In this document: in pieces, positions 2 through 31,075 of the stretch | How the letters are laid out: each line of letters begins with the position of its first letter | How positions within the stretch are numbered: the stretch's first letter is position 1 | From: a virus | Taxonomy: Duplodnaviria > Caudoviricetes | Virus record (IMG/VR): IMGVR_UViG_3300032232_000987 | Coordinates: 1-37,284 of that record | DNA: 37,284 nucleotides | Reading direction: 5' to 3' (one strand) | The notes under the pieces: generated by a model | The model's database searches: none | Told to the model about the DNA's origin: nothing | Seen by the model: only the letters and a program-made list of their open reading frames with translations | Position numbers and translations under genes: made by a program

Positions 2-1840
2 TTCCAACTGTCTATTCAAAAAACACCAGCAGAAGGTGGTAGCGGGTTCTATTGGTACAACAACGGCGGAAATCAAATATTTGTATCAGCGGCATCTGGG
101 ATTCCTGCGCTAGGAAGATGGTCGCATATTGCTGTTGTTCGGTCTGGCACGACCGTTAGTCTGTACAACAACGGAGTCAGGGTAGGAACTACGACAAACA
201 GTTCATCGTTGGGAATGCCAAGCCCATATTTGGGAATGTTTACTGACGGGGTTAATTACCCAATGATCGGTCAAATTTCCAATTTCCGCGTAACCAACAC
301 GGCGGTTTATGATCCAACGGTTGCTTGGCTGACAATCCCAACATCGCCATTGACCGCAATCACTGGCACCCAACTGCTCACGTTCCAGAATGCCACAATT
401 GTAGACAACAGCACCAATGCTCTGACACTGACCAATAACGGTTCAGTCACGACTCAATTGGCAAATCCTTTTGGGGTTCAACTTTCAACCCCAGCAGTAG
501 ACTACCTTGTAGTTGCCGGTGGTGGTGGTTCGTCACAAGGTGGCGGTGGTGCAGGAGGATTACTTCAAGGATCTATACCAGTTACTACTGGTTCTGCTCT
601 CACGGTAACAGTTGGTGGCGGTGGTGCTGCTTATACACAAGGACAAAATTCAGTTTTTTCAAGCATTGCAGCCATTGGTGGCGGGGCAGCGGCTAGTGGT
701 ACAGGTGGCTCTGGTGGTGGCGGGAATAATGCAGCAGGACAACAAGGCACATTCAGTCAAGGCAATACTGGTGGAGCAGGTAGCGCAACAGCAAGTCCGT
801 ATGCCGGCGGAGGCGGAGGCGGTGCTGGAACAGTTGGATTAAACGCAACTTCAACAGTCGCAGGAAATGGCGGTGCAGGAATTGCGTCTGCTATTTCTGG
901 AACTATTACAACTTATGCCGGTGGAGGTGGCGGAGGTGGGCCGACTAATGGTACAGGCGGTGTAGGTGGGGGCGGAGCAGGTGATGCAACCGGCACAGCC
1001 AATACAGGCGGAGGAGGTGGCGGTGGATATGGTGGCGGTCCTAAAGCCGGCGGTTCCGGTATTGTCATCATAAGTTACCCAGACATCTACGCTGGCGCGG
1101 CATCAACCACTGGTAGCCCAACAGTCAGCACCAGCGGGTCTGGCAGTTTAACTGGAAATTCATTAACTGCATCTACTAGTTGGTTTAATTACGCAGGACA
1201 AAGCGCATTTTCGTTTGGAACTGGCGATTTTACTATTGAATTCTGGGCATATTTTACCAATACTTCTGTGCCAGCAAATTATTTAATTGATTTTAGGGGA
1301 TCAAGCGCGCCTACTGGATCTGTATTTGGTATTTATCAAAATAGTGCTGGTTTCTACTATTTCTCTAGTTCTGTTGGAGAATACAGTTTTATGGGAGTCC
1401 CAGCTCAAAATAGGTGGTACAGCGTTGCTGTTACAAGAGTTAGCAACACAGTACGATTATTTATCAATGGTGAATTAAAAAGCACTTTTGTAGATACATA
1501 CAGTTATTCAGTTGGAAATACTGGTCCTTCTATAATGGGTTCAACTTACTATAATAACTACGGGTTTAATGGTTACATATCTAATTATCGGATAATTAAA
1601 GGCACTGGTTTATATACAGCGTCTTATACACCCTCTACTGTGCCGTTAACGGTTGTATCAGGAACTTCACTGTTATTAAACACAGTTTCTGGTGCTTATT
1701 TAACAGATAGTTCCGTTAACGCTCATACTCCTAGTGTAACTAATACAATGGCATGGAATCAAACTAGCCCATTTGCAACCGGCTTAGGATACAAAAATCG
1801 TGTGTACACTTGGACCAGTTCTGGTTCTATAACCTTCTAA
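2..1840 (+). CDS. Tail fibre/adhesin with LamG (ConA-like) and glycine-rich domains; 5'-truncated by the window
   Basis: Frame +2 is open from base 2 (FQLSIQKTP...WSHIAVVRSGTTVSLYNNG), so the TTG at 209 is internal. LamG-like motifs (FTIEFW, WYSVAVTR...LFING, GYISNYRI) flank a VDYLVVAGGGG...GGSGIVIISYP block. Confidence 0.8.
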   Translation, partial: FQLSIQKTPAEGGSGFYWYNNGGNQIFVSAASGIPALGRWSHIAVVRSGTTVSLYNNGVRVGTTTNSSSLGMPSPYLGMFTDGVNYPMIGQISNFRVTNTAVYDPTVAWLTIPTSPLTAITGTQLLTFQNATIVDNSTNALTLTNNGSVTTQLANPFGVQLSTPAVDYLVVAGGGGSSQGGGGAGGLLQGSIPVTTGSALTVTVGGGGAAYTQGQNSVFSSIAAIGGGAAASGTGGSGGGGNNAAGQQGTFSQGNTGGAGSATASPYAGGGGGGAGTVGLNATSTVAGNGGAGIASAISGTITTYAGGGGGGGPTNGTGGVGGGGAGDATGTANTGGGGGGGYGGGPKAGGSGIVIISYPDIYAGAASTTGSPTVSTSGSGSLTGNSLTASTSWFNYAGQSAFSFGTGDFTIEFWAYFTNTSVPANYLIDFRGSSAPTGSVFGIYQNSAGFYYFSSSVGEYSFMGVPAQNRWYSVAVTRVSNTVRLFINGELKSTFVDTYSYSVGNTGPSIMGSTYYNNYGFNGYISNYRIIKGTGLYTASYTPSTVPLTVVSGTSLLLNTVSGAYLTDSSVNAHTPSVTNTMAWNQTSPFATGLGYKNRVYTWTSSGSITF

Positions 1841-1850
1841 GGATTATAAT

Positions 1851-2762
1851 ATGAGTCAATATTTAGGAGGTTTTTTAGCCACTAATTTTAATCCTATGCG
1901 GGATCAAAAAACCAGTACAGTTGAGTACCTAGTAGTTGCTGGTGGCGGTGGAGGCGGCGGAGCAGGTTGTGGCGGAGGTGGTGCTGGCGGCCTATTGACT
2001 GCAACCGGATACTCAGTCTCGCCCGGATCTAGTATCACAGTAACAGTTGGCGGCGGGGGAACTCCTGGAAACCAAGGATCTGGTGCTGGTCAAAGAGGAA
2101 ATAGTTCAGTATTTGGATCAATTACATCAACTGGTGGCGGCGGTGCCGCAAATGCTTTGTATGCAGGTTCAACTGGTGGATCAGGTGCCGGAGGAATGAA
2201 TAGTGGAAATCCCACTGGTTATGCTACAAATGGAACATCTGGACAAGGAAACAACGGCGGAACTTATGCCACAAGAGCGTCTGGTGGCGGTGGCGGTGCT
2301 GGAAGTGTAGGTCAAGATGGAACTCAAATAGACAGTACTTATAATTTGCGTTCCGGTAATGGTGGAACTGGAATAATTTCTACTATTACTGGATTAAAAG
2401 TATTTTATGCTGGTGGCGGTGGCGGTGGTGGAGATGTGTATTTGCGTGCAGATTCAGGAGGATACGGCGGTGCTGGAGGAGGTGGAAATGGTGGTGGCAT
2501 TGGCGGATCCGGAACTTACACTTCAAACACAAGCACGGTAAACGGAGATAATGGTGTAGCAAACACTGGTGGTGGTGGAGGTGGTGCAATTGGCAATGGT
2601 CCTATAGGTGGAGTTGCTGGAACAGGAGGCAGTGGTATAGTTATTATCCGTTATCCACAAAATTTAGCACCTCCTACAAGTACCACAGGTAATCCACAAA
2701 TTTTATATAATTCAGGTTATCAGATTTATGTCTGGACTAGTTCCGGCTCTATAACCTTTTAA
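1851..2762 (+). CDS. Glycine-rich virion/tail-fibre-associated protein
   Basis: VEYLVVAGGGG...GGSGIVIIRYP...WTSSGSITF cassette; paralog of neighbours; TAAGGA SD upstream. Confidence 0.75.
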   Translation: MSQYLGGFLATNFNPMRDQKTSTVEYLVVAGGGGGGGAGCGGGGAGGLLTATGYSVSPGSSITVTVGGGGTPGNQGSGAGQRGNSSVFGSITSTGGGGAANALYAGSTGGSGAGGMNSGNPTGYATNGTSGQGNNGGTYATRASGGGGGAGSVGQDGTQIDSTYNLRSGNGGTGIISTITGLKVFYAGGGGGGGDVYLRADSGGYGGAGGGGNGGGIGGSGTYTSNTSTVNGDNGVANTGGGGGGAIGNGPIGGVAGTGGSGIVIIRYPQNLAPPTSTTGNPQILYNSGYQIYVWTSSGSITF

Positions 2763-2772
2763 GGAGAATAAG

Positions 2773-3135
2773 ATGGCACATTTTGCAAAAGTTGAACATG
2801 GAATTGTTACACAAGTAATTGTAATTGATCAAGAAACACTAAATACAGGTAATTGGGGGGATCCTAAAGATTGGGTACAAACTAGTTATAATACACACGG
2901 TGGAGTTCATACACAAGGTGGTACACCATTACGTAAAAATTATGCGGGGATTGGTTTTATCTATGATATTATAAGAGATGCATTTATTCCGCCTAAACCT
3001 TATGCAAGTTGGATTTTAAATGAAGAAACTTGTTTGTGGTCAGCACCCACACCAATGCCAGCAGATGGTAAGTTGTACCAGTGGGACGAGCCTACTACTA
3101 GCTGGCAAGAAATCGTAATGCCTACACAGGAGTAA
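2773..3135 (+). CDS. Conserved phage protein accompanying Gly-rich fibre genes (possible assembly factor)
   Basis: Strong SD (AAGGAG); MAHFAKV...QTSYN...RKNYAGIG...DAFIPPKPY...W pattern recalled from aquatic phages; function is inferred only. Confidence 0.6.
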   Translation: MAHFAKVEHGIVTQVIVIDQETLNTGNWGDPKDWVQTSYNTHGGVHTQGGTPLRKNYAGIGFIYDIIRDAFIPPKPYASWILNEETCLWSAPTPMPADGKLYQWDEPTTSWQEIVMPTQE

Positions 3136-3138
3136 TCC

Positions 3139-4035
3139 ATGCCTCGATACAGTGGAATCTGGACCCTAAGCCAGGTCAACCAAGCAATTAAAAATTTAGA
3201 CTGGGAAGGTGTCGCGCCCACTGTAGTAGAGTATTTAGTAGTTGCTGGTGGCGGTGGTGGAGAAAATGATCAAGGAGGTGGCGGCGGAGCAGGTGGATTA
3301 CTCCAAGGCTATGTTGGTATTACCAGCGGTACTTCTTATACTATCACAGTTGGTGCTGGAGGTACCGCAACTAGTGGACAGGGAACTCCGGCAACTTCTG
3401 GTGGTAATTCTGTTTTTTCAACAATTACAGCAACCGGAGGCGGGCGGGGCGGAGATTGCGTATCAACTACACCAGCAATTGGTGGTTCTGGCGGTGGCGG
3501 TGGCGGTTATTATGCTATGGGTCAGCAAGCTGGCGCTAGTGGTATTACAGGACAAGGCAATAGTGGCGGAATCGGCCTTTCAAGTGGAAGTAATAATAAC
3601 AGACCTTCAGGTGGCGGAGGCGGGGCCGGAACTGTTGGTGCAAATGCAACTTCCGCTGCATCAGGAAATGGTGGTGCAGGAATTGCATCCGATATTACTG
3701 GAACTAGAACTGTTTATGCCGGTGGTGGTGGCGGTGGAATGGGGCAAGATGGCGGAAGTGTAGGTGCTGGTGGAATCGGTGGTGGTGGTGCTGGTGGAAA
3801 AGATCCGGGAAATGGAACGGCTGGTACTGCAAATACCGGAGGTGGCGGGGGCGGTTGCGGAAACGGTAGTCTTTATAATGGCGGTGCAGGCGGTAGTGGC
3901 ATTGTAGTCATTAGATACCCCGGTTTTATGCAATTTTTTACTGGCGGCACAGTTACTTATGTAGGTAATTATGTGATTCATACATTTACATCGTCTGGCA
4001 CATTAGCGCCAACGACTCCTACTAAATTATCATAA
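3139..4035 (+). CDS. Glycine-rich virion/tail-fibre-associated protein
   Basis: Third copy of the VEYLVVAGGGG...GGSGIVVIRYP...HTFTSSGTL cassette; AGGAG SD. Confidence 0.75.
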   Translation: MPRYSGIWTLSQVNQAIKNLDWEGVAPTVVEYLVVAGGGGGENDQGGGGGAGGLLQGYVGITSGTSYTITVGAGGTATSGQGTPATSGGNSVFSTITATGGGRGGDCVSTTPAIGGSGGGGGGYYAMGQQAGASGITGQGNSGGIGLSSGSNNNRPSGGGGGAGTVGANATSAASGNGGAGIASDITGTRTVYAGGGGGGMGQDGGSVGAGGIGGGGAGGKDPGNGTAGTANTGGGGGGCGNGSLYNGGAGGSGIVVIRYPGFMQFFTGGTVTYVGNYVIHTFTSSGTLAPTTPTKLS

Positions 4036-4053
4036 TCATCAAGTGGAGTTAAA

Positions 4054-5727
4054 ATGACTATTTCACGTAATTTATCTGCACTAGCTCAAAATGTAAGCAG
4101 TACAGGTACCCTAAGTCAGGCAAGTACTTTACCTAGTCAAACCAATAATGGCGGTAAGTATTTAACCACTAATGGCAGTGTAGCTACTTGGGCAGATACT
4201 CCCACGCCTACAACTACTACTTATACAGCAAATAGTATTAGTTTAACTAATGGTGTTTATATTAGTGGTAGCGTAGCCAGTATTCAAACCTATGGTGACT
4301 ATGGGGCTGGTAATTTTTATAATTTTACAGACGGTACTGGTAGCGGACCTGCCTGGATTTTAACTACTACATTTACTGGTGTAGCTAGTTTTAATCGAGC
4401 TGTATTAAATATTAGCTATACAGCTAATTCAGGTCATACAATCTATGTAGACTTATATAATTACAATTCTAGTAGTTGGGATTCTATTGGTAGTTATACT
4501 GGTTTAAGTGGATACTATCAATTTGCACTAGGGGTAATTTCTAGTACTCCGTATATTAGCAGTGGAACTGTACAACTTAGATTATATCATAATAATAGTG
4601 GCAATGCTGCACATGAAACTCGTGTAGACTATATTGCCTTGGAAAATTCCTTGCAAGGACCACAAGGTCAAAAAGGCAATACAGGTGCTACAGGTGCTAC
4701 AGGTGCAACCGGACCAGGCGTGCCCGCAGGTGGCACCTCAGGTCAAGTTCTTACAAAAACCAGTGCTACTGACTATGCCACTAGTTTTTCAACACTAAAC
4801 ACATCGTATCTTAGTGATATAGTAATTACCACCGCCGCCAACGGTCAAATCTTACAGTATGACAGTGCTACCAGCGCTTGGAAAAACGTTACCTCGCCGT
4901 ATGCTCCACTAACTAATCCTACCTTTACTGGCACAGTTAGTGGTATTACCAAATCAATGGTTGGTTTAGGCAATGTGGAAAATACTGCACTAAGTACTTG
5001 GACAGGTAGCACTAGTATTACTAGTTTGGGCACAGTTACAGTAGGCAGTGCACCTGCTAGTGATGTGTACAGTTGGGCTAAAGCCGCTACTAAACCTAGT
5101 TATACTGCTGGGGAAGTTGGCCTAGGCAATGTTACCAATGAAAGTAAAGCAACAATGTTTGCTAATCCTGCTTTTACTGGTACAGTTACTGGTGTTACTG
5201 CTGCAATGGTTGGCCTAGGTAATGTTACCAATGAAAGTAAGGCAACAATGTTTGCCAATTCCGCGCTTACAGGTACAACTACTATAGCTACAGCTACTAT
5301 TACTAATGCTACTGTATCTACAGCACCTAGTGCTAATACAGACGTGGTAAATAAAACTTACAGCGATAGTGGTACACAAACGCTAACTAATAAACGTATA
5401 CAGTCAAGAATTTTGGTTGCTACAAGTGCTACTACTTGGGCTGTAAATGCTGATAGTTATGATGCCACTGAAATGGCCATGACTGGTGCAGCTGGCACAC
5501 TATTAGTAAGTGCACCAACCGGAACACCAGTAAACGGTCAAAAATTGATCTATAAACTGCAAAGTACCTATGCACAAACCTTTAACTGGGCAAGTATATT
5601 TCAAGGTTCTACTGATCTAGCACTACCAACTACCAGTAGTGGAAACAGCAAGTGGGATTTTTACGGATTTATCTATAATTCCACTCCAGCAAAGTGGCAA
5701 CTAGTAGCAAAAGTAGCTGGATTTTAA
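4054..5727 (+). CDS. Tail fibre protein with collagen-like segment and VGLGNV repeats
   Basis: GPQGQKGNTGATGATGATGPG (about 4657-4719); three VGLGNV repeats; Thr/Ser-rich; GGAG SD. Confidence 0.75.
   Translation: MTISRNLSALAQNVSSTGTLSQASTLPSQTNNGGKYLTTNGSVATWADTPTPTTTTYTANSISLTNGVYISGSVASIQTYGDYGAGNFYNFTDGTGSGPAWILTTTFTGVASFNRAVLNISYTANSGHTIYVDLYNYNSSSWDSIGSYTGLSGYYQFALGVISSTPYISSGTVQLRLYHNNSGNAAHETRVDYIALENSLQGPQGQKGNTGATGATGATGPGVPAGGTSGQVLTKTSATDYATSFSTLNTSYLSDIVITTAANGQILQYDSATSAWKNVTSPYAPLTNPTFTGTVSGITKSMVGLGNVENTALSTWTGSTSITSLGTVTVGSAPASDVYSWAKAATKPSYTAGEVGLGNVTNESKATMFANPAFTGTVTGVTAAMVGLGNVTNESKATMFANSALTGTTTIATATITNATVSTAPSANTDVVNKTYSDSGTQTLTNKRIQSRILVATSATTWAVNADSYDATEMAMTGAAGTLLVSAPTGTPVNGQKLIYKLQSTYAQTFNWASIFQGSTDLALPTTSSGNSKWDFYGFIYNSTPAKWQLVAKVAGF
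5116..5259 (+). repeat. Two 51-nt direct repeats (5116-5166, 5209-5259) encoding VGLGNVTNESKATMFAN
   Basis: gttggcctagg(c/t)aatgttaccaatgaaagtaa(a/g)gcaacaatgtttgc(t/c)aat; 93-nt offset. Confidence 0.9.
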
Positions 5728-5739
5728 TGGGTACTAACA

Positions 5740-8700
5740 ATGGCAAATAAAACTTGGAATGGAAGTACTGGTACTTGGGCTACTGCAGCTAGTTGGAGTC
5801 CTGCTGGTGTTCCAGCCACTACTGATGATGTATTTATTAATGGTGGAAGCGTTACTGTAGCTGCTCAAACTTGTAGAAATTTAACTATTGGCGGCACTTG
5901 TACTATAGCCGGTACTAGTTTAACTGTTACTGGTCCTCTTACTATTAATAGCGGAACTTTTAATCTTAATACTACTGCTGCATTTGTTGTTCAGGGTAAT
6001 ATTACTAACTCAGGCGGCAGTTTTATACAGAATGGTGCAGGACAGCTTACTTTAAGTGGTACAACTAGTGTAGATGCAAATTTTGGCGACAATAATTTAA
6101 GGCAGATGACAGTTGTTAAAACAGGTTCAGGTGGCGTTACTTTTACTGGTTCGCAAGTTAACATACAAGGTACCAATAGTAACAGCTCTATTTTTACTTA
6201 TACCAGCGGCGCAATTATTCAAAACGTAGTTATTGTATGTGGCGGTATAGTTAATACTAGCGCAACAGCTAGAATTTGGGCAATGAACGCTGACCTTATT
6301 CTTAGTGCTGGTGGTAATGCAATTGGTTGCAGCATGAACAGTGCAGCTGCTTGCACTTTTAGTAGTAGATCCGGTACTGTACGAATCAGAAGTCTTACAA
6401 ATGGCGGTAATAATACCATAATTTTTCCTGCTCCTACGGTATCAACAACTGCTGCATCATCATATACACCCAATGTTAGTTTAGAGAGTAACACAAACTG
6501 GAGTATTAGTGGATCTGTTAATAATATAGCTATTGATGGGCAACACACGGGCACAGCAGGAACTCTAACTGTTTACGGAACAATTACTAGTAATAGTGGT
6601 GACAGGACTTGGACAACTTGTACACTTCTTATTTATAATGCTACTAACGGCGGTACAAGTACTATAAGTGCTGGTTATACTACTTTTCTTGCTGCTACTA
6701 TAGCTAATATAAGCGGCACCAATGCTACGTTTACAATAAATTCACTTAAAGCTGTAAATATAACCTGTAGCGGAACAACCTGTACTTATAATTTAGGTGT
6801 ACAAAATGATGATAATCAAATTGTAACACTGTCTACTAATGCTACACTAACATTAAGTGGTAATACTAGCACGTTTAATTTATATAACGTACGAAGCTAT
6901 AATACTACAATGAGTAGTAATGGTAGTTATAATGTATATAAATTAGAGCCCAACTATTATCTTGTTAATCCACCAACTGCAGGAACTACCACACATAGTG
7001 CTGGTACTTTAACTATTAAAAGTGGTTATACACTAACTACTTATGCATTTACTAGTAATAGTGGTACTCGTACTCTTAATTTTGAAGATAATAGTTATAT
7101 TACTACACTAAATACTGGTCCACTGCTTATTGGATACACAAGTCTTACTAGTTATTGTCCATATGATAACGCCGGATTTTTGCATCAAAGTACTGGTCAA
7201 TTTACATTTACAGGTACACCTAGTGGTTCCCAGACATATAATGTCTTTAACCTTTCACTTTATAAAGTAAATAATAGTACTGGTGCCACTACTGTTAGAA
7301 ATCTTACCATTAATGACGGTGCTGGTATGACTACCGTAGCTGCTGTAACTTTTTGTTATAAGTTTACAGGTGCTACTAATACTACAATAACTGGTTTAAA
7401 TTTAACTAGATCTACCACTATTGGTGCTGGTAGCTATGTTAACTATACTGGTGGTACTATAGGTACATTTACCAATAGTGAGACTTCAGGAGCTAATCAA
7501 TACATATATAATTTAACTGCTCAAACTATAACATTAGGTTGTACTAATGGTGCTTGGGTTTATATAGGTGGGGATGGTACCAATACTAATGGTACTGTTA
7601 AAATAAATACTACCAATACTGTTACTTTAGGTGGCGCCTGTACTTATTACATATATAATCTTAGAGCATACAATTTAACACTAAGTAATTCTGGTAGGTA
7701 TGATTGTTATTATTACGAGCATAATTATGCAACTAATCCGCCTACTGCCGGAACTGTTACACATACTGCTGGCACATTAGTTTTAAAAACTAGAACTGCT
7801 GGTTACACAATGACAACTTGGAGTTTTACTAGTACTACTGGTACTCGTGGTATTACTTTTGAAACAGATAGTTATATTAATACTGTTAATAACGGAACTT
7901 GCAGTTATCAATATGGTCCAGCACTTACTTGTAGCCGACCAGAAACAATGTGGTGTGGATTTATTCATGATGGTACCGGAGCATGGCAGGCTGACTTTGT
8001 TACCACAGCACCTACTGCTAGTCAATGTTTTAACTTTTACTGGTCGCAGATTATTGCCCTAGCTGGCACTGGCGTTTTTTACGCTAGAAATTTGGGAAAT
8101 CAAGGTTCACGATTAACAAGTCATGTTAACTATACTTTTGATCCAGGTTGGGGGCAGGGAAGTGGTGCTTTTACTAATACTAGTGCTAGAACCATATTTA
8201 TTGCTGGCGATGTAACTTTAACTGGCGGCGTATGGTACGATACTACTATTAGTGGTAGAACACAATGGTTACAGCTATATCTTACTTATTTTGCTACTGA
8301 TAGTAGAACGCAAAAAATAAGTACACTTGCAAACTGGTATAATGGTAGTAATAGTCTTAAAATTGGTACAATTACCTTAAATTCCAGTTTTACAGGTACT
8401 CTGCAATTAGGTTACGATAATTACGATGCTAATAAAGTTTTTTCTGATAGTGGTGATGGTGCTGCTATATTTAGCAATTTTGTACACAATAACGGAACTC
8501 TAGATGTAAGAGGCCGTCAAATGTACTTAGAAACAAGCTATAGTCACACGGATACAGTAAATCTTAAGTATATTATTAATTCAGCCGCTACTTACTCAGA
8601 TCCTAGTATTTACATTAATGCTACTACAGGTACTCCTTGGAGTATTGAATATACCAGTATACTTTATAGTAATTGGAAAATCTGGGTTAAAATTAGGGGT

Positions 8701-11004
8701 GGAACAGTAAGACACGGATCTAGTGGTCCTAGTGTTGATAGGCAACCTAGTTTTGATTTAAGTGAACGTGCAGCAGCATATACCATACCTAATCGTTTAG
8801 ATTCTAGTCCTGCTGCGCCAGATTTTTGTGTGGGCAGTTTACGTATCAATAATTATACTGTACCTAATTACAGTAATTGGACTATTGGTGGCCCTGAGTT
8901 TAAGTTTTATACTGGTGGGCTTTCTGCTCCCGCCAATTTTACCGTAAACATTTATAATGCTGTGCAATATAGCAATACTGCTGCAAAGGGCAGTACTCAA
9001 ATGTATGTGGATAACAATACCTTTGCTTGGCCACAAGTTAATATTGGCACAGATGCTACAATAACTTGTGCCAATTTCAAATTTAATAATATTAATATAG
9101 ACGGTGGTACTACTACTTCTTCAGGTCAATTTGTTGAAGTTGTTGGAACTTTAGGTTCTAGTGGTTATGGTGGTGGTACCTTAAATATTAGCAATAGCGA
9201 GTGGGTATTTAGGGGGTCAGGAACTGTTATTAAGTATATTTTTCAGGCCTATGGATTTAATATGATTAGTGATTCCACAGGTACTGCAACATTTGAGGGA
9301 CTTAATGGCACTAATCAAGGAGATCAGTTCGCGGGATTTCTTACTAATTTTGGCGGCAAAATAGTTAATAAAATTGGCTATAATACTGGTACTGGCATTG
9401 GTACTTTATACCTTACAGCTGGAGTAAACACTGATACCACTGTACCACTAGCTAGTCAAATTGATTTTAACTATAGTACATCTAGTATAACGTTTATTCT
9501 TGATAAACCTAGTCAAAGTGCGTATGGGTTCCCCATTAAAGGTTCTACTTTTAATATAGGCACAAGTAGTGCTGGCTATAGGTATCTTAGTTCACAAGGT
9601 GGCAACTGGGATAACTGGGGTATTTATAATACTGAAAGTACTACAGTAAGCGGAAATTATCTTAACCTAACCAATTGCCCGGCAAAAGGCGGTGGCGGTT
9701 GGTATGCTGGTGCAAACAGCGTTGATAATGGTGGTAATACTGGTTGGTATTTTTATGCCCCAGCAACTTTTAGTTTAAATCGTAGCGCTGCTACAGTAGA
9801 CGAGGGCGGTAGTGTTACAATTACACTAACTACTAATGCGCCTAACGGTACTCTTGTACCATATACTATTACTGGTATAACAAGTGCTGATATTAGTGGT
9901 GCTAGTTTAACTGGTAATTTTACCGTTAGTGGTGGTACTGCTAATGTTGTGCTTAATATAGCCAATGACTATAACACTGAAGGCAGTGAAACACTTACGC
10001 TTGCATTAAATAATGGTGCAGCAAGTATTGCAGTTGCTGTTAATGATACTTCATTATTACCTACTTATAGTTTACAACGTAGTGCAGTTAGTGTAACAGA
10101 GGGTGGTAGTTTTACTATTACCTTAACAACAACTAACTTGCCAAATGGAACAACTGTACCCTACACAATAACTGGCGTAAGTAGTAGTGATATTAATAAT
10201 GCTAGTTTAACTGGTAATTTTACAATTAGTAGTAATAGTGCTAGTTTAGTAGTTAATACTACTTGGGATTATGTAACTGAAGGACAGGAAACATTTACAC
10301 TTACCCTGAACCCAACCTATGGTACAGGCAGTGCAATTAGTGTTGCGATTAATAACTTATTACACCCAACATATGCATTAGCAGCAAGTCCTACTACACT
10401 TAATGAAGGCGGTAACTTTACTATTACCTTAACTACTACAGACGTTCCAGATAATACTACAGTTCCTTATACTATTACTGGAACAGTTAATAGCGCTGAT
10501 ATTAATGGAGCTAGCTTAACGGGTAATTTTACAGTTGTTAGTAATACAGCTAATATAGTATTTACTGCTACAGGTGATTATGTTACTGAAGGCACAGAAG
10601 ATTTTGTAATTACTTTAAATGGAATAGGTACAACTGTATCCGTAGCTATTTATGACTATTATAAAACTCGTACATATGCCTTGAGCACTAATGCAACCAC
10701 CGTTACTGAAGGTGATGTATTTACTATTACCTTGACAACAACAAATGTGTTTGATAGTACCACAGTACCATATACAATAACTGGTGTAAGTAGTAGTGAT
10801 ATTAACAATGCTAGTTTAACTGGTAACTTTACTATTACTAGTAATAGCGGAACGCAAACTTTTACTACTACTGCAGATTTGGTTTCAGAGGGCACAGAAA
10901 CATTCACCATAACTCTAGGTACTCCAGCAAGCGGATCTATTAATGTTAGTATAAAAGATCCTGTTTCCGCCAGTACTGGTAGTTTTTTAAGCTTTTTTGA
11001 TTAG
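5740..11004 (+). CDS. Large beta-rich tail fibre/adhesin (1754 aa) with four C-terminal Ig/Calx-beta-like repeats
   Basis: T/N/S/G-rich; N-terminal W...SWSPAGVPATTDDVF motif; internal duplication; four about 100-aa repeats. Confidence 0.75.
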   Translation: MANKTWNGSTGTWATAASWSPAGVPATTDDVFINGGSVTVAAQTCRNLTIGGTCTIAGTSLTVTGPLTINSGTFNLNTTAAFVVQGNITNSGGSFIQNGAGQLTLSGTTSVDANFGDNNLRQMTVVKTGSGGVTFTGSQVNIQGTNSNSSIFTYTSGAIIQNVVIVCGGIVNTSATARIWAMNADLILSAGGNAIGCSMNSAAACTFSSRSGTVRIRSLTNGGNNTIIFPAPTVSTTAASSYTPNVSLESNTNWSISGSVNNIAIDGQHTGTAGTLTVYGTITSNSGDRTWTTCTLLIYNATNGGTSTISAGYTTFLAATIANISGTNATFTINSLKAVNITCSGTTCTYNLGVQNDDNQIVTLSTNATLTLSGNTSTFNLYNVRSYNTTMSSNGSYNVYKLEPNYYLVNPPTAGTTTHSAGTLTIKSGYTLTTYAFTSNSGTRTLNFEDNSYITTLNTGPLLIGYTSLTSYCPYDNAGFLHQSTGQFTFTGTPSGSQTYNVFNLSLYKVNNSTGATTVRNLTINDGAGMTTVAAVTFCYKFTGATNTTITGLNLTRSTTIGAGSYVNYTGGTIGTFTNSETSGANQYIYNLTAQTITLGCTNGAWVYIGGDGTNTNGTVKINTTNTVTLGGACTYYIYNLRAYNLTLSNSGRYDCYYYEHNYATNPPTAGTVTHTAGTLVLKTRTAGYTMTTWSFTSTTGTRGITFETDSYINTVNNGTCSYQYGPALTCSRPETMWCGFIHDGTGAWQADFVTTAPTASQCFNFYWSQIIALAGTGVFYARNLGNQGSRLTSHVNYTFDPGWGQGSGAFTNTSARTIFIAGDVTLTGGVWYDTTISGRTQWLQLYLTYFATDSRTQKISTLANWYNGSNSLKIGTITLNSSFTGTLQLGYDNYDANKVFSDSGDGAAIFSNFVHNNGTLDVRGRQMYLETSYSHTDTVNLKYIINSAATYSDPSIYINATTGTPWSIEYTSILYSNWKIWVKIRGGTVRHGSSGPSVDRQPSFDLSERAAAYTIPNRLDSSPAAPDFCVGSLRINNYTVPNYSNWTIGGPEFKFYTGGLSAPANFTVNIYNAVQYSNTAAKGSTQMYVDNNTFAWPQVNIGTDATITCANFKFNNINIDGGTTTSSGQFVEVVGTLGSSGYGGGTLNISNSEWVFRGSGTVIKYIFQAYGFNMISDSTGTATFEGLNGTNQGDQFAGFLTNFGGKIVNKIGYNTGTGIGTLYLTAGVNTDTTVPLASQIDFNYSTSSITFILDKPSQSAYGFPIKGSTFNIGTSSAGYRYLSSQGGNWDNWGIYNTESTTVSGNYLNLTNCPAKGGGGWYAGANSVDNGGNTGWYFYAPATFSLNRSAATVDEGGSVTITLTTNAPNGTLVPYTITGITSADISGASLTGNFTVSGGTANVVLNIANDYNTEGSETLTLALNNGAASIAVAVNDTSLLPTYSLQRSAVSVTEGGSFTITLTTTNLPNGTTVPYTITGVSSSDINNASLTGNFTISSNSASLVVNTTWDYVTEGQETFTLTLNPTYGTGSAISVAINNLLHPTYALAASPTTLNEGGNFTITLTTTDVPDNTTVPYTITGTVNSADINGASLTGNFTVVSNTANIVFTATGDYVTEGTEDFVITLNGIGTTVSVAIYDYYKTRTYALSTNATTVTEGDVFTITLTTTNVFDSTTVPYTITGVSSSDINNASLTGNFTITSNSGTQTFTTTADLVSEGTETFTITLGTPASGSINVSIKDPVSASTGSFLSFFD
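9763..10960 (+). repeat. Four tandem about 300-nt Ig/Calx-beta-like coding repeats
   Basis: Unit TY(S/A)L...EG..FTITLTTT...TTVPYTITG.SS.DIN.ASLTGNFT...EG.E.F; repeats 2 and 4 are nearly identical in DNA (about 10160-10225 vs about 10770-10835). Confidence 0.9.
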
Positions 11005-11012
11005 GACTAATA

Positions 11013-11375
11013 ATGGTTAATGATGTAAAAGCAATTGTTGTAATTGCAATTATAGTTGTATTATCTATGTTAGGATATTATGGATATAATGTAGTGTATG
11101 AGCGAGGCAAACAACAAGCAAAACTTGAGTGTTTGGAAGAAAAACAAAAATATGAATTGGAAGTTAAACAAAAAATTCAAGACTTAGAAACAGCACTACA
11201 ACAAACAGCGGCCGAAGGCGAACGTAAAAAACAGGAATTAGGTAAAACTATCAAAGATATTAAATCTAAACTTAAACAGCAGCCAATTACTATTATCGAA
11301 AATGGTAAGTGTATCCCAGCTGTAATTTTTTTAGATAGCATTAACGAAGCAATTTCTAAAGCGAATAATAAATGA
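11013..11375 (+). CDS. Inner-membrane spanin (Rz-like)
   Basis: One N-terminal TM helix, then a coiled coil with a Cys near the C-terminus; precedes a lipoprotein. Confidence 0.75.
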   Translation: MVNDVKAIVVIAIIVVLSMLGYYGYNVVYERGKQQAKLECLEEKQKYELEVKQKIQDLETALQQTAAEGERKKQELGKTIKDIKSKLKQQPITIIENGKCIPAVIFLDSINEAISKANNK

Positions 11376-11662
11376 AAAAACTAGTAATAAGCTTTGGTTT
11401 ATTACTCTTATTGTTAAACGGATGTGGAATTTTTCAGAAAAAAATTCCGGAAGTTCCACCTCCGGCAACCACTGGCAATAGAGTAGTAATAGACCCTAAA
11501 CTGTTGCAACCTTGCGAATTATTGCCAGCCTTAGTTGGCAACACATATGAACAAGTTGCAGATCATTATCTAACAGTCATTAGCCTATATGGTCAATGCG
11601 CTCTTAAACAAATGGATAGTATTGCTACTATACGCAAACTATCTAACCTGGATAAACCATGA
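11372..11662 (+). CDS. Outer-membrane spanin lipoprotein (Rz1-like)
   Basis: Signal peptide with lipobox LLNG-C, Pro-rich segment and LLQPC...C pattern; overlaps both neighbours by 4 nt. Confidence 0.8.
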   Translation: MKKLVISFGLLLLLLNGCGIFQKKIPEVPPPATTGNRVVIDPKLLQPCELLPALVGNTYEQVADHYLTVISLYGQCALKQMDSIATIRKLSNLDKP

Positions 11663-12078
11663 AAGAACATTTACGTTTCCGCAATATTTTTATGATTGGC
11701 GGTACCATTATTGTGATGATTTACTTGTATTTAAGTGATCCCAATGGTGGCAATATGACCATTCCATTTTTAGCTAAATTAGCTACGCCCATTGTGGCAG
11801 TGTGGTTTTCGCACCTTGCACGTAGGGCACTGTTTGATTACGCAGACATGGAATCACTGATGAAAAAGGCACGCGAAACCGCCACTGGCGCAGGCTTGGC
11901 TTTTGTTGGACTTTGCATTATTATCTACGGCTTGTTATCCTTATTCGGCTCGCAGGTATATGCTCAGTCGCCGGAAACCTATATTCCCAAGCAAGCACAT
12001 GAGCATCTGCCTACACTTCAGCAAGAAAAAGATAAGGTATGGTCAACACACCCAAAGCCGCATACCTTGCTAGTCTAA
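11659..12078 (+). CDS. Three-TM membrane protein (holin-like); N-terminal part of a possible frameshift fusion with the endolysin
   Basis: Three hydrophobic segments, then VYA-Q and a soluble tail (IPKQAHEHLPTLQQEKDKVWSTHP) resembling the start of SLT endolysins. Confidence 0.65.
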   Translation: MKEHLRFRNIFMIGGTIIVMIYLYLSDPNGGNMTIPFLAKLATPIVAVWFSHLARRALFDYADMESLMKKARETATGAGLAFVGLCIIIYGLLSLFGSQVYAQSPETYIPKQAHEHLPTLQQEKDKVWSTHPKPHTLLV

Positions 12079-12614
12079 TAGAGCATGAGTCCTGTATATC
12101 GCTTACACACAGTAAGTGTTGGAACTCCAAATCTAGGCTAAAAAGTGCTAGGGAAGAGGGTGCAGGACTTGGTCAGATTACCAGGGCTTTTAAACCAGAT
12201 GGGTCAATTAGGTTTGATGCTCTATCAGACTTAAAACATAAGTACAACAAGGAGTTATCGGAGTTAAACTGGCAAGTAGTTTATGATAGACCAGATTTGC
12301 AAATTCGTGCACTAGCACTAATGATGCGTGATAATTATCAGTATTTTAGTAAATATGTTCAAGACAAACAGGAGGCTTATGCTTTTGCTGATGCTGCCTA
12401 TAATGGTGGTGCGGGTGGTGTAGATCACGAACGTAGAGCTTGTAAATTAGCAAGCTGGTGTGATCCTAACAAATGGTTTGATAACGTGGAGAAACTTTGC
12501 TTAAAATCTAAAGTGGCACTATATGGTAATCGTAGTGCTTGTGATATTAACCGTCATCATGTTAGAGATGTACTCTTAAACCGCAGTGCAAAATATCTTG
12601 CATACGTTAAGTAG
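12039..12614 (+). CDS. SLT-type lytic transglycosylase (endolysin) catalytic domain
   Basis: Motifs IEHES (catalytic Glu), GLGQIT and AAYNGG; lies in the lysis cassette, in the -1 frame relative to the upstream ORF. Confidence 0.85.
   Translation: MVNTPKAAYLASLIEHESCISLTHSKCWNSKSRLKSAREEGAGLGQITRAFKPDGSIRFDALSDLKHKYNKELSELNWQVVYDRPDLQIRALALMMRDNYQYFSKYVQDKQEAYAFADAAYNGGAGGVDHERRACKLASWCDPNKWFDNVEKLCLKSKVALYGNRSACDINRHHVRDVLLNRSAKYLAYVK
12051..12057 (+). promoter_or_regulatory. Candidate -1 ribosomal frameshift heptamer C_CCA_AAG
   Basis: X_XXY_YYZ in the correct register of ORF 11659 (cac cca aag); SD-like TAAGGT at 12033-12038, 12 nt upstream. Confidence 0.5.
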
Positions 12615-12633
12615 TCTTTTAAAAAAGGTCTTT

Positions 12634-13323
12634 ATGGTTGCTCAATCAGGTAAGCGGGCTCGTAAAATAGCTTTATTGGAAAGTGAAAATCCCATTGAAC
12701 ATGGATTTAAAGAGGTAAAGCCACTAAATGAAATTCAAAGTGTGTACTTAGATGCTATTAGAAATAATGAAATTATATTTGGTATTGGCAGTGCTGGCAC
12801 TGGCAAGACTTATGTAGCAGCTAGTTATGCAGCAGGCCAACTGTTTCACCGTAAGATTTCAAAAATTATCTTAACTAGACCCAATGTAGAAACTGGTCGT
12901 GGACTAGGATTCTTACCCGGTAAATTAGACGATAAATACGCGCCATATTTACAGCCATTTGACTCAGTGTTTACCCGTACACTGGGTGCTGGATTTTATC
13001 AATATGCCTTGAAAAACAAAGATATAGATCCTAAACCAATAGGATTTATGCGAGGTATGAGTTTTGACTATGCCGTTATCTTAGTTGATGAAGCGCAAAA
13101 CCTAACCAAAACTGAACTAAAAATGTTACTTAGCCGTGTAGGTAAAAACTGTAAAGTTATACTTAGTGGCGATCCTAAACAAACCGATATTATAGACAGT
13201 GGTCTAGAAGATGCTGTTGGACGACTACAAGGTTTATCTGGAGTTCAAGTAGTTAGATTTGAGGATGATGATATTGTTCGCAGTAAAATGTGTAAACAGA
13301 TTATCTTAGCCTACAACAACTAA
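12634..13323 (+). CDS. phoH: PhoH-like ATPase
   Basis: GSAGTGKT Walker A, LGFLPG, FMRG, DEAQN, GDPKQTD and VRS motifs; ATG 12634 preceded by AAAGGT. Confidence 0.93.
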   Translation: MVAQSGKRARKIALLESENPIEHGFKEVKPLNEIQSVYLDAIRNNEIIFGIGSAGTGKTYVAASYAAGQLFHRKISKIILTRPNVETGRGLGFLPGKLDDKYAPYLQPFDSVFTRTLGAGFYQYALKNKDIDPKPIGFMRGMSFDYAVILVDEAQNLTKTELKMLLSRVGKNCKVILSGDPKQTDIIDSGLEDAVGRLQGLSGVQVVRFEDDDIVRSKMCKQIILAYNN

Positions 13324-13325
13324 AC

Positions 13326-13363
13326 AAAAAGCCCCTAAGCAGCAATGCTTAGGGGCTTTTTTT
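13326..13363. terminator. Bidirectional intrinsic terminator
   Basis: AAAAAGCCCCTAAGCA-GCAA-TGCTTAGGGGCTTTTTTT between convergent genes. Confidence 0.93.
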
Positions 13364-28554: not shown

Positions 28555-29301
28555 TTAAGCAGCAGCTTTAGCTTCTGCTTTGGCTTTTTTATCAGCGCCT
28601 TTATAGTCAGCAACATTAATGCCACGACGGGTAAGCAGAGTGCGCAGACCGCGCTCAGTTTTATCAACCGCAGCTGCAATTTCTGCAACAGTCATACTGG
28701 CGATACGCTCACCAAGTGCCACGATAGGATCAACCTGATCTTTTGCGTGTGATTCACGCTGAGCAGGAATTTTTGCAATTTGGCCTTTACGGGTCAGACT
28801 AAGCGCCTTACCACGAACCGAGGCAACCGTCTTGCCAAGTGCTTTAGCAATATCCTCGATATAGTTACCACGCTCAGCCATGGAAATGAATTTTGCCTCT
28901 TCAGCATCAGTGTAGCTGCGAGCAACTTCCACTTTTTCAGCGGGCTTAACACTACCAGTCAACTCAAGTGCAAGCAGCTTGCCTTGGATTTGCTTAGCAG
29001 TGAATTTTCCATCGGCAAATGCCTCGGAAATTTGTTTATAAGTAAATACACCAGAATTGTTGGTAACGAAATGAAAGAGTGCGCGGCTTTCTTCGTCAGT
29101 AAAAGCACTGACTTTTTCTTTAGCCATACTAGCAACTTCACGGTCAAGCTGACGCAGTTTGGCAGCTACGCTACGGGTAGACACTTCCAAGGTTTCAGCG
29201 GCCTCCTCAACTTTAGCAACCGATACAGGGGACTCACGTCCTACGATTCCAAGAAGATGAGCAACGGCTTCTTCAGACCACTTTTTAGTTTTTTCAGTCA
29301 T
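28555..29301 (-). CDS. D5: DNA-binding protein (T5 D5-like)
   Basis: Repeated HTH-like units (RSVAAKLR, KQIQGK, SVRGKALSL, RGLRTLLTRRG); follows the split ligase as in T5. Confidence 0.85.
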   Translation of the reverse strand: MTEKTKKWSEEAVAHLLGIVGRESPVSVAKVEEAAETLEVSTRSVAAKLRQLDREVASMAKEKVSAFTDEESRALFHFVTNNSGVFTYKQISEAFADGKFTAKQIQGKLLALELTGSVKPAEKVEVARSYTDAEEAKFISMAERGNYIEDIAKALGKTVASVRGKALSLTRKGQIAKIPAQRESHAKDQVDPIVALGERIASMTVAEIAAAVDKTERGLRTLLTRRGINVADYKGADKKAKAEAKAAA

Positions 29302-30055
29302 ATGTTTTCTCGTTTAAAAATTGTGATAAGTTTTCGATAATTGTAATGCCGAGTTGATCGGCTTTGGTACGTTTTGAGCTGCCTTTATTATCTTCATCAA
29401 CTAGATAATTGGTTTGTTTAGTTACGGTTTCGGTAACTTTAAATCCCATATCTTCTAGTGCTTTAGTGGCTTCCGCCTTGTTTTTAAATGAAGTTAATTT
29501 ACCAGTTATGCAGACGCTTTCGGCACTTACATTGGCTACTGGCTTATTGCTTGTTTTGAAAGAGAATGGCAAAAACTCCTTCATTTCTACGAAATCTGTC
29601 TCTAGCCAAGAGATTAGATTATTAGTAACTTTTTCTCCTAAACCTGCTTGCTTGCACTGTTCCGGGGTAATATCATCAATGGACTCTACTACTTTAGTAA
29701 TTTTTTGTGCAGCAGTGTTTCCTACTAGTGGAATACTAAAAGCAGGTAGGATGGTTGCTAAATCACTGTGTCGAGACCTGTCGATTTCATCTAACAATTT
29801 TACTGCAATTTTTTCACTACCTAATGCCGTAATAATTTCGTCAAGTTCGAGATAGTAAATCTCAGTAATATCAGTTAGCTGAAGTTTCTCTAGTGTTTTA
29901 GCACCCATGCCTTTGATGCCTAATGTCTTGCAAAAATGCTCCAACTTTTTGCCCAGCTGTGCGCTACAGGCTTGATTACGACAAAAAAGTTGGTCATTGA
30001 CAAGCTCTAGTGTATAGTCGCAACACGGACAAGTAGTTGGAATTTTGATTTTCAT
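29294..30055 (-). CDS. ligB: NAD-dependent DNA ligase, C-terminal subunit (zinc finger, HhH, BRCT)
   Basis: PTTCPCC...FCRNQAC, IKGMG and VCITGKL...GSSKRTKA motifs. Confidence 0.9.
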   Translation of the reverse strand: MKIKIPTTCPCCDYTLELVNDQLFCRNQACSAQLGKKLEHFCKTLGIKGMGAKTLEKLQLTDITEIYYLELDEIITALGSEKIAVKLLDEIDRSRHSDLATILPAFSIPLVGNTAAQKITKVVESIDDITPEQCKQAGLGEKVTNNLISWLETDFVEMKEFLPFSFKTSNKPVANVSAESVCITGKLTSFKNKAEATKALEDMGFKVTETVTKQTNYLVDEDNKGSSKRTKADQLGITIIENLSQFLNEKTYD

Positions 30056-30081
30056 TGGGCTTTTTTCAAATTCAATAATGT

Positions 30082-30110
30082 ATTATACAGTATAAAGCAT
30101 TGCGTTTCAA
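30082..30110 (-). promoter_or_regulatory. sigma70-type promoter TTGAAA-17-TATAAT between the ligase halves
   Basis: -35 at 30105-30110 and -10 at 30082-30087. Confidence 0.82.
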
Positions 30111-30121
30111 GTCTAAATTTT

Positions 30122-31075
30122 CTATGCCTCTACCTTGTGCAAGACGCAGGGAATAATTTCTCCAGCCCTAATAATGGCTACGGTATCTCCGATTTCCAGG
30201 CCCAGGGCTTCAATGAATCCTGGGTTATTAAGGGTAGCTCGGCTTACCATAGCATCACCTACTAGCACAGGCTCAAGGATTGCCACTGGTGTTACTTTAC
30301 CGGATTTGCCAACTTGCCACTCAACATCTAGCAATTTAGTCTCCACGTGTTCAGCACGCTCCTTGCGAGCATAAGCACCGCGAGGATGTTTGCTGGTATA
30401 GCCCAGCTCTTCAAACTGATGATTGTTATTAAGCCTAAAGACTACACCGTCTGTGGGATAGATTTTTTCTAAGTCAGTTTCTTGTACAGTGTTAAAACCA
30501 AACCGTTTAAGCATTAGCATATCTGCATCATAAGTTTGACCTACAAATGGCTGAACACCATATGCAAAGAAACTGATTGCACGAGTAGCAAACTCACTTG
30601 TATCCTTAAGATTAAGTGCGCCTGCAGCATAGTTACGGGCATTTGGAATGTGACTTGGAGCCACAATCTCACCAGTAACTTGTAGCACGCCGGTATACCT
30701 AATAAAGTGTGGAACTAGACTAGTACTGCTAAGCAACTTGTCAGTAATTACTTGACCCTCGACTCCATCCCCACGAGTCAGTGCCTGTACTAGTTGGCCG
30801 TCAACATACAGCAGGCTAATAGCTGCACCATCAAGCTTAACGCTCATACTAACGTCACCCATGCCTAGCAGTGGATTGGGCTTGCCCTCGTCCTCGTAGT
30901 GCTTTTGCAGGCTATACATAGGATAATAGTGTCTGGCCTTAGTACCTTGAACCTGTGCGCCTACAGCTGAATACTTTGCAGCTTCAGCTAGGCGATCAAA
31001 CTGCTCGTCACTAATAATAGGAAAGCCAGCGTAATAGGCTTGGCTTGCTGCGTCTAAGTATTGTTTAATAGTCAT
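30122..31075 (-). CDS. ligA: NAD-dependent DNA ligase, adenylation/OB subunit
   Basis: YY...ISDEQFD, KLDG, TRGDG, RNYAAG, DGVV, ATLNN and RAGEIIP motifs. Confidence 0.93.
   Translation of the reverse strand: MTIKQYLDAASQAYYAGFPIISDEQFDRLAEAAKYSAVGAQVQGTKARHYYPMYSLQKHYEDEGKPNPLLGMGDVSMSVKLDGAAISLLYVDGQLVQALTRGDGVEGQVITDKLLSSTSLVPHFIRYTGVLQVTGEIVAPSHIPNARNYAAGALNLKDTSEFATRAISFFAYGVQPFVGQTYDADMLMLKRFGFNTVQETDLEKIYPTDGVVFRLNNNHQFEELGYTSKHPRGAYARKERAEHVETKLLDVEWQVGKSGKVTPVAILEPVLVGDAMVSRATLNNPGFIEALGLEIGDTVAIIRAGEIIPCVLHKVEA

Follow-up and report, generated by a model that had tools for sequence, protein, structure and literature searches.

In a 37,284-nt stretch of a Caudoviricetes virus record (IMGVR_UViG_3300032232_000987, positions 1 to 37,284; hereafter the window), we found a lysis gene that very probably carries a real, conserved and programmed -1 ribosomal frameshift, through which a protein with three predicted transmembrane (TM) helices would be extended into a lytic transglycosylase. 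An initial annotation, made from the letters of the sequence alone, had proposed a programmed -1 fusion of a 3-TM protein to an SLT endolysin, and this proposal is strongly supported by the comparative evidence now available from the slippery heptamer, the selection acting on both frames, the residue register and the fold.

Genomic setting of the lysis cassette

The window is a piece of a virus record whose complete relatives measure 99-105 kb and carry long-tail genes. Its gene set is T5-like, with tail fibres, PhoH, class II RNR, SbcCD, PolA, a primase, a helicase and a split NAD ligase. This NAD-dependent ligase is encoded on the minus strand (29294-31075) as two genes, one for the adenylation/OB part and one bearing the BRCT domain, an arrangement of T5-like phages. 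A series of glycine-rich tail-fibre-like genes occupies 209-11004 (+), together with a 1754-aa ORF without Pfam match and with repeated C-terminal modules.

The gene order of the cassette is i-spanin, o-spanin, ORF1 and ORF2, the stop of the o-spanin overlapping the start of ORF1 (ATGA). Besides the three predicted TM helices, ORF1 encodes the transglycosylase domain's N-terminal helix and then a tail that is not conserved. Directly behind the endolysin lies phoH, on the same strand and ahead of a 16-bp bidirectional terminator-like hairpin (12586-13361).

11013..11375, + strand: i-spanin (Rz-like), opening the lysis cassette; PHROG Rz-like spanin matches, E 2e-4 to 5e-3, weak, backed by position
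11372..11662, + strand: o-spanin (LysC/Rz1-like lipoprotein), lipobox LLNGC; Pfam LysC E 2e-7, phrog_456
11659..12078, + strand: ORF1, 139 aa, 0-frame product; gene call, hydropathy, model, dN/dS
11677..11946, + strand: three predicted TM helices; AlphaFold2 model (pLDDT 88.8), hydropathy, predicted topology
11956..11967, + strand: V-Y-A/Q, predicted signal peptidase I site after TM3, resembling the signal-peptide cleavage region of two-gene homologues
11965..12051, + strand: predicted N-terminal part of the lytic-transglycosylase domain, 0 frame; model of homologue L129, helix 110-126
12033..12038, + strand: SD-like TAAGGT, 12 nt before the heptamer, kept in close relatives only
12039..12041, + strand: ATG opening ORF2 in mechanical gene calls; start not conserved
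12039..12614, + strand: ORF2, 191 aa counted from the ATG; mechanical gene call, -1 frame
12051..12057, + strand: slippery heptamer C_CCA_AAG, predicted -1 shift site; in register within the overlap, conserved
12057..12614, + strand: -1-frame endolysin part, 185 aa; phrog_669 endolysin E 3e-14, 45% identity to YuA gp62, dN/dS, MltF fold
12076..12078, + strand: 0-frame stop TAA, seventh codon past AAG
12087..12089, + strand: predicted catalytic Glu of the HES motif; -1 frame, family motif
13326..13361, no strand assigned: terminator-like hairpin of bidirectional intrinsic type behind phoH, closing the + strand gene run

The frame break in the window

ORF1 and ORF2 overlap by 40 nt, with ORF2 in the -1 frame, and the positions that the initial annotation gave for the overlap, the heptamer, the TAAGGT and the 0-frame stop were all recovered. 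The TAA within TAAGGT doubles as a -1-frame stop. Translation through a slip at the heptamer reproduces the seamless 318-aa product (133 + 185) previously proposed, ...KVWSTHPK/AAYLASLIEHESC, and the junction peptide of this predicted fusion would read ...STHPKAAYLASL. Across 18 window genes, 41 of 8435 codon positions hold an in-register XXXYYYZ and 0 of 8435 a CCCAAAR, the chance of an in-register XXXYYYZ within the 13-codon overlap being about 6%. The heptamer in the window alone is thus modest evidence; its presence in 41 of 41 frame-broken loci (see below) is not chance, though these loci are related.

A one-nucleotide error or mutation, previously retained as an alternative, is refuted by gapless contigs from two sequencing runs and by a break common to 41 loci. 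The check used contigs of runs X1 and X3, not raw reads. The X1 contig (depth 38) is identical to positions 11500-12451, with no difference and no gap, but is not independent since run X1 may be the source of the window record. In run X3, which belongs to another study, two contigs span the junction without a gap and differ from the window by 32 and 57 substitutions. Coverage by the RNA run, X13, does not extend to the junction. Among the indel rows listed for the contigs, no one-base variant restoring the frame was present at 12045-12065, the interval that had been singled out for verification. The frame break is real and no assembly error.

Conservation of the site and of both frames

The comparison started from 285 records, drawn from six homologue scans, the YuA region and the window. 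We removed 96 exact duplicates, 10 loci with less than 450 nt upstream (the 7 inspected were all in frame), 2 that lacked the catalytic codon and 1 that lacked the enzyme, which left 176 distinct loci. Of these, 41 are frame-broken, 85 are in-frame fusions, 40 have two genes and 10 gave no TM gene nearby, proportions that are not population frequencies since the queries were drawn from the frameshifted group.

An in-register X_XXY_YYZ is present in 41/41 frame-broken loci versus 6/135 in-frame homologues over the same span, so that frame break and heptamer, whose presence in relatives had been proposed as a check, are conserved together. Its codon position is identical in 40 of the 41 and one codon later in the last (L160). 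The heptamers are C_CCA_AAG (28 loci), C_CCA_AAA (8), CCCTTTT (2), CCCTTTC (1), C_CCA_AAC (1) and A_AAA_AAG (1). In the 28 representatives that are less than 88% identical, the codon preceding Pro always ends in C (28/28) and the Pro codon tracks the next one, CCA standing before AAN (25) and CCT before TTY (3), a covariation that tandem tRNA slippage would predict. The 35 in-frame His-Pro homologues are without such constraint (CAC 20, CAT 15; CCA in 4; Lys next in 1). Slipping in E. coli comes most readily with AAR or UUY in the A site (PMC4066793 and PMC5009743, parts available), and the former paper places C_CCA_AAG among the best heptamers and in the best motif class.

In two loci (L023, L024), flanking stops mean that the shift must take place within 16 nt around the heptamer. 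In 10 close relatives, dN/dS is 0.067 in the 0 frame over the 90 codons before the site and 0.078 in the -1 frame after it, the values in the other frames being 6.1 and 1.4; at the heptamer, the frame under purifying selection changes from 0 to -1. A -1 slip also makes the residue count from the conserved Trp to HES equal to that of naturally fused homologues such as L035, and so brings back the register of these 85 proteins. The break is kept down to 59% identity with ORF2, and ORF2 is full length in all 38 loci whose end is on the contig. Among cultured phages 76 records match, all below 60% identity, and YuA, the one examined, has two genes.

Alternative origins of the enzyme frame

Could ORF2 be a gene of its own, initiated or reinitiated at 12039 or at a near-cognate codon? 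The window does have an ATG there with the SD-like motif adjoining, and an NTG occupies this place in 41/41 loci. This NTG is, however, a by-product of a 0-frame Trp codon, and it reads TTG in 18 loci, CTG in 11, GTG in 10 and ATG in only 2. An in-frame stop separates the place from the catalytic Glu in 5/41 loci, and 13/41 have no ATG, GTG or TTG ahead of that Glu. The product would moreover be without the N-terminal helix of the domain and without an export signal, and the heptamer would be left unexplained. We consider a separate gene very unlikely. A transglycosylase fold that is predicted to start some 30 residues ahead of the heptamer, together with the unconserved ATG, makes programmed -1 frameshifting the likely route. 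Transcriptional slippage or a hypermutable DNA run could also restore the frame by inserting a base, and six consecutive A do stand at the site in 2 loci; yet the longest A/T run is 4 in 9 loci and 3 in 30, and runs subject to polymerase slippage are usually longer. A CCC kept in codon register is predicted by tRNA re-pairing and not by polymerase slippage, and the indel rows listed at 12045-12065 hold no one-base ON variant. Although phage contingency loci have been described (bioRxiv 2025.10.21.683753, in the part available), such an origin is highly improbable here. The likelihood of a sequencing error or a decayed (pseudogenised) endolysin is negligible: a second, SleB-like hydrolase could in principle substitute for the enzyme, but the same break recurs in 41 loci at identities down to 59%, with an intact ORF2 (38/38) under purifying selection (dN/dS 0.078) and agreeing contigs. 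Gene callers yield a truncated endolysin at this locus.

A predicted MltF-like transglycosylase spans the site

The fusion is predicted to be an SLT/MltF-like lytic transglycosylase with a family-1 lysozyme-like fold; its endolysin part matches YuA gp62 (45% identity) and phrog_669 (E 3e-14). The model of the in-frame homologue L129 (pLDDT 93) aligns to MltF with Z 18.0 and rmsd 3.0 over 173 residues (model range 101-316), and to MltC with 15.1. As the alignment to MltF starts at residue 101, the enzyme domain would begin about 30 residues before the site. The fold was resolved by this structural alignment; Foldseek gave a best E of 8e-3 for the fused model, and Pfam returned no match at useful E for ORF1, ORF2 or the fused homologues, including none to SLT. 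The residue E143 is invariant in 81 fused homologues and presumed catalytic from the family E-S/T motif, and several conserved Cys lie near it.

The fusion was also considered as the only muralytic gene, which was rejected because a SleB-like hydrolase (PF07486) with a signal-peptide-like N terminus occurs in 4/5 complete relatives (G001, G002, G004, G005); the fusion is thus the cassette's enzyme and not the sole muralytic candidate. The SleB-like Hydrolase_2 gene of G002 (L287:1690-2124, -) lies beside thymidylate synthase, away from the cassette. PF00959, PF13539, PF01464 and PF01510 were found in 0/5 complete relatives, their positive controls being detected, while the 0/5 obtained for PF00182 and PF05838, without a working positive control, is uninformative.

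Membrane domain, export and the holin question

The ORF1 model places helices at residues 7-26, 34-58 and 75-94, with a hydrophobic TM3 segment at 78-96. Loop charges suggest an N-in/C-out topology, under which the enzyme would sit in the periplasm. An A-x-A follows TM3 in 40/41 frameshifted and 82/85 fused proteins (control, 363/2912 windows, 12.5%). Together with the likeness to the signal peptides of two-gene homologues, this motif makes release by signal peptidase more likely than a lasting tether, and cleavage at VYA/Q appears reasonably probable. The 'membrane-tethered' endolysin of the initial annotation is therefore doubtful. The protein also departs from SAR endolysins, having three TM helices instead of a single anchor and an A-x-A in 40/41 loci. 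A Cys is present in the TM3 region of 41/41 frameshifted versus 31/85 fused proteins (Cys86 in the window, 11914-11916); disulfide control, known in some SAR endolysins, is conceivable here.

ORF1 had also been called holin-like. The three TM helices stand, and a small 3-TM protein in a lysis cassette is a class I holin trait, but a holin identity is tentative, the homology being weak and the family only annotated as holin. ORF1 of the window is without a holin-family sequence match, while 14/120 homologues match phrog_8226 (best 4e-5). YuA gp61 matches the TM-domain profile at E 1e-8, the hhalign probability for the holin family is 52%, and Atlas Holin_2-3 scores of 0.84 and 0.81 are a lead only. 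The domain is a separate gene in 40 loci, and in YuA this gene, annotated as holin, lies between spanins and endolysin. No other holin match was obtained among 110 of the 142 G002 ORFs that were scanned. A fold search of the TM domain against viral models gave no match at E <=0.001, a result that does not speak for a new fold. A holin- or timer-like role is slightly favoured for the membrane product, which would be the abundant one.

The same frameshift may serve another function, in which the TM domain anchors or regulates instead of forming holin pores, the fusion remains tethered in a SAR-like manner until the membrane collapses and the short product acts as decoy or inhibitor; this alternative bears on function alone and leaves the frameshift itself untouched. 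The 85 1:1 fusions among 176 homologues fit poorly with the canonical scheme in which a holin lets a cytoplasmic enzyme out, the distribution of the TM3-region Cys agrees with a SAR-like anchor, and the two-gene homologue of Sonora is annotated as SAR endolysin plus class I holin in the available part of PMC9022593. The A-x-A shared with the cleavable signal peptides of two-gene members speaks against an anchor, as do the standing of the TM domain as an annotated holin gene in YuA and the lack of another holin match among the G002 ORFs scanned. Weighing these points, we regard an anchoring function as tenable but doubtful.

Stimulators and expected slip rate

The SD-like motif of the window forms an anti-SD duplex of -6.1 kcal/mol, but duplexes of -3.5 kcal/mol or lower occur in only 17/41 broken loci, mostly close relatives, where the match arises because Lys-Val codons give AAGGT. 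The upstream SD stimulator of dnaX/IS3 type invoked in the initial annotation is thus not conserved and no general feature. The downstream hairpin is weak, as had been noted (-4.6 kcal/mol over 45 nt). No conserved 3' structure was detected in the 28 representatives (alifold 0.0; mean z -0.15 against synonymous shuffles), pseudoknots being outside this prediction, and no synonymous constraint was seen downstream of the site (0/18 invariant residues with an invariant codon). Since no stimulator is conserved and unstimulated E. coli heptamers reach 2.1-10 times a 0.055% background (PMC4066793, available part), the rate may be about 0.5% or less, so that either a tiny amount of enzyme suffices or another stimulator acts.

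As a lead only, the pull on nascent TM3 during membrane insertion is a candidate stimulator. In the Sindbis virus and LepB systems, a heptamer downstream of a nascent TM helix likewise slips by -1 without need for RNA structure, but these systems are eukaryotic and their optimum is 45 codons from the TM edge, 35 being inactive in vitro (PMC12776465, available part), versus 36 here. The C-terminal edge of TM3 lies 36 codons from the site in 32/41 broken loci, and its centre 45 codons away in 30/41 broken versus 11/85 fused loci, all counts coming from related loci. An apparent fit of the 45 codons to the TM-slip rule was downgraded because the paper measures from edges. It is a speculative and rather improbable idea that SecYEG pulling nascent TM3, and not RNA structure, drives the slip, one gene then giving a holin-type timer and a scarce self-exporting endolysin, perhaps having arisen twice (in the C_CCA_AAR clade and at the A_AAA_AAG of L160). 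If true, this would be bacterial translocon-coupled frameshifting, tying enzyme dose to membrane insertion. As no RNA stimulator is conserved, the family offers a natural test of nascent-chain membrane insertion promoting frameshifting in bacteria.

Evolution and hosts

The frameshifted genes group in a single clade, inside which the in-frame L129 is placed (SH-aLRT 96, 65-row tree). L160 falls outside this clade in two trees, its monophyly with the others not being rejected (AU p 0.226), and shared low GC may bias placement. The trees point to probably one old gain of the frameshift, a probable loss (L129) and possibly a second gain (L160), the 41 broken loci then representing about one or two origins. 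At L129:797-1744 the gene is fused in frame and the heptamer is gone; given its nesting, the shift appears dispensable there. The frame break in L160:1291-1432 occurs at an A_AAA_AAG that lies one codon beyond the usual position. Fused homologues are found mostly in Burkholderiales genomes. A frameshifted copy 91% identical to ORF2 (L251, CAYGVZ010000051.1) sits in a MAG labelled Pirellulales; this contig is probably a misbinned phage and thus no host evidence.

Proposed mechanism and known systems

In the mechanism that we propose, most ribosomes would produce the 139-aa three-helix membrane protein, and the few that slip would produce the 318-aa fusion of membrane protein and lytic transglycosylase, the tRNA-Pro and tRNA-Lys presumably moving in tandem from CCA AAG to CCC AAA. 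The enzyme domain would be exported via Sec, with TM3 as internal signal in the N-in/C-out orientation. The slip would keep down the amount of the self-exporting muralytic enzyme during build-up of the membrane protein, its frequency likely setting the ratio of membrane protein to enzyme, and the spanins would complete outer-membrane disruption. In 40 related loci the same division is achieved through two genes, the enzyme gene having its own signal peptide, and 85 others retain a 1:1 fusion.

The shift site of E. coli copA is CCCAAAG, the same heptamer. In that system too a membrane-protein gene gives two products by a -1 slip, and CCCAAAG is present in an ATP7B orthologue oligo (PMC6771820 and PMC9548414, in the parts available); the slip there truncates the protein to the soluble chaperone CopA(Z), whereas here it would extend it by an enzyme. 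The IS1/IS3 transposases and dnaX share X_XXA_AAG and UUY heptamers with this family, and the authors read the low-rate fusion of IS1 as keeping a harmful protein scarce (PMC4066793, same part), but neither a conserved SD nor a conserved 3' hairpin or pseudoknot accompanies the site here. Lambda gpG/gpGT offers the likeness of one phage gene whose low-level -1 slip yields, in a set ratio (30:1 in lambda), a minor product with a C-terminal extension (PMC5009743, available part). Unlike gpG/gpGT, the present gene belongs to the lysis cassette and encodes a polytopic membrane protein in its 0 frame; its site falls within the enzyme domain, and the family also has fused and two-gene members. The complete relative G002 has the usual G/GT pair of tail assembly chaperone genes (L285:13087-13850, -), the first of which holds a G_GGA_AAC -1 site close to its end.

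Frameshifting has been invoked for a lysis gene before, in the passage from coat to lysis gene of MS2 (PMC5009743 and PMC10885494, parts available), an RNA phage with a single lysis peptide whose lysis was later attributed to termination-coupled initiation (Berkhout 1987, cited in PMC5009743). YuA (gp61/gp62) and Sonora have a homologous enzyme (45% to gp62), a weakly homologous 3-TM protein and adjoining spanins, but in two genes with separate starts and no frameshift, their functions being annotations. The lactococcal lysin of Shearman 1994 reportedly involves overlapping genes with separate starts and no slippage fusion. The available part of PRFect names lysins among genes known to frameshift, and its references include Shearman 1994. 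Our search of mainly open-access literature, at the level of listings and abstract openings, turned up no article in which a frameshift fuses an endolysin to a membrane protein, and the first 300,000 of the 449,034 characters of the Atkins review contain neither 'endolysin' nor 'holin'. A known mechanism, the -1 frameshift, is thus met in a role that we did not find described.

Most of the phage frameshifts known so far affect tail chaperones and virion proteins. In a lysis cassette, a conserved frameshift would be a new way to set the ratio of membrane protein to endolysin and to restrain a Sec-exported muralytic enzyme. With three natural solutions side by side, the 1:1 fusion, the frameshift and the two genes, the role of lysis-protein stoichiometry becomes directly testable in this family.
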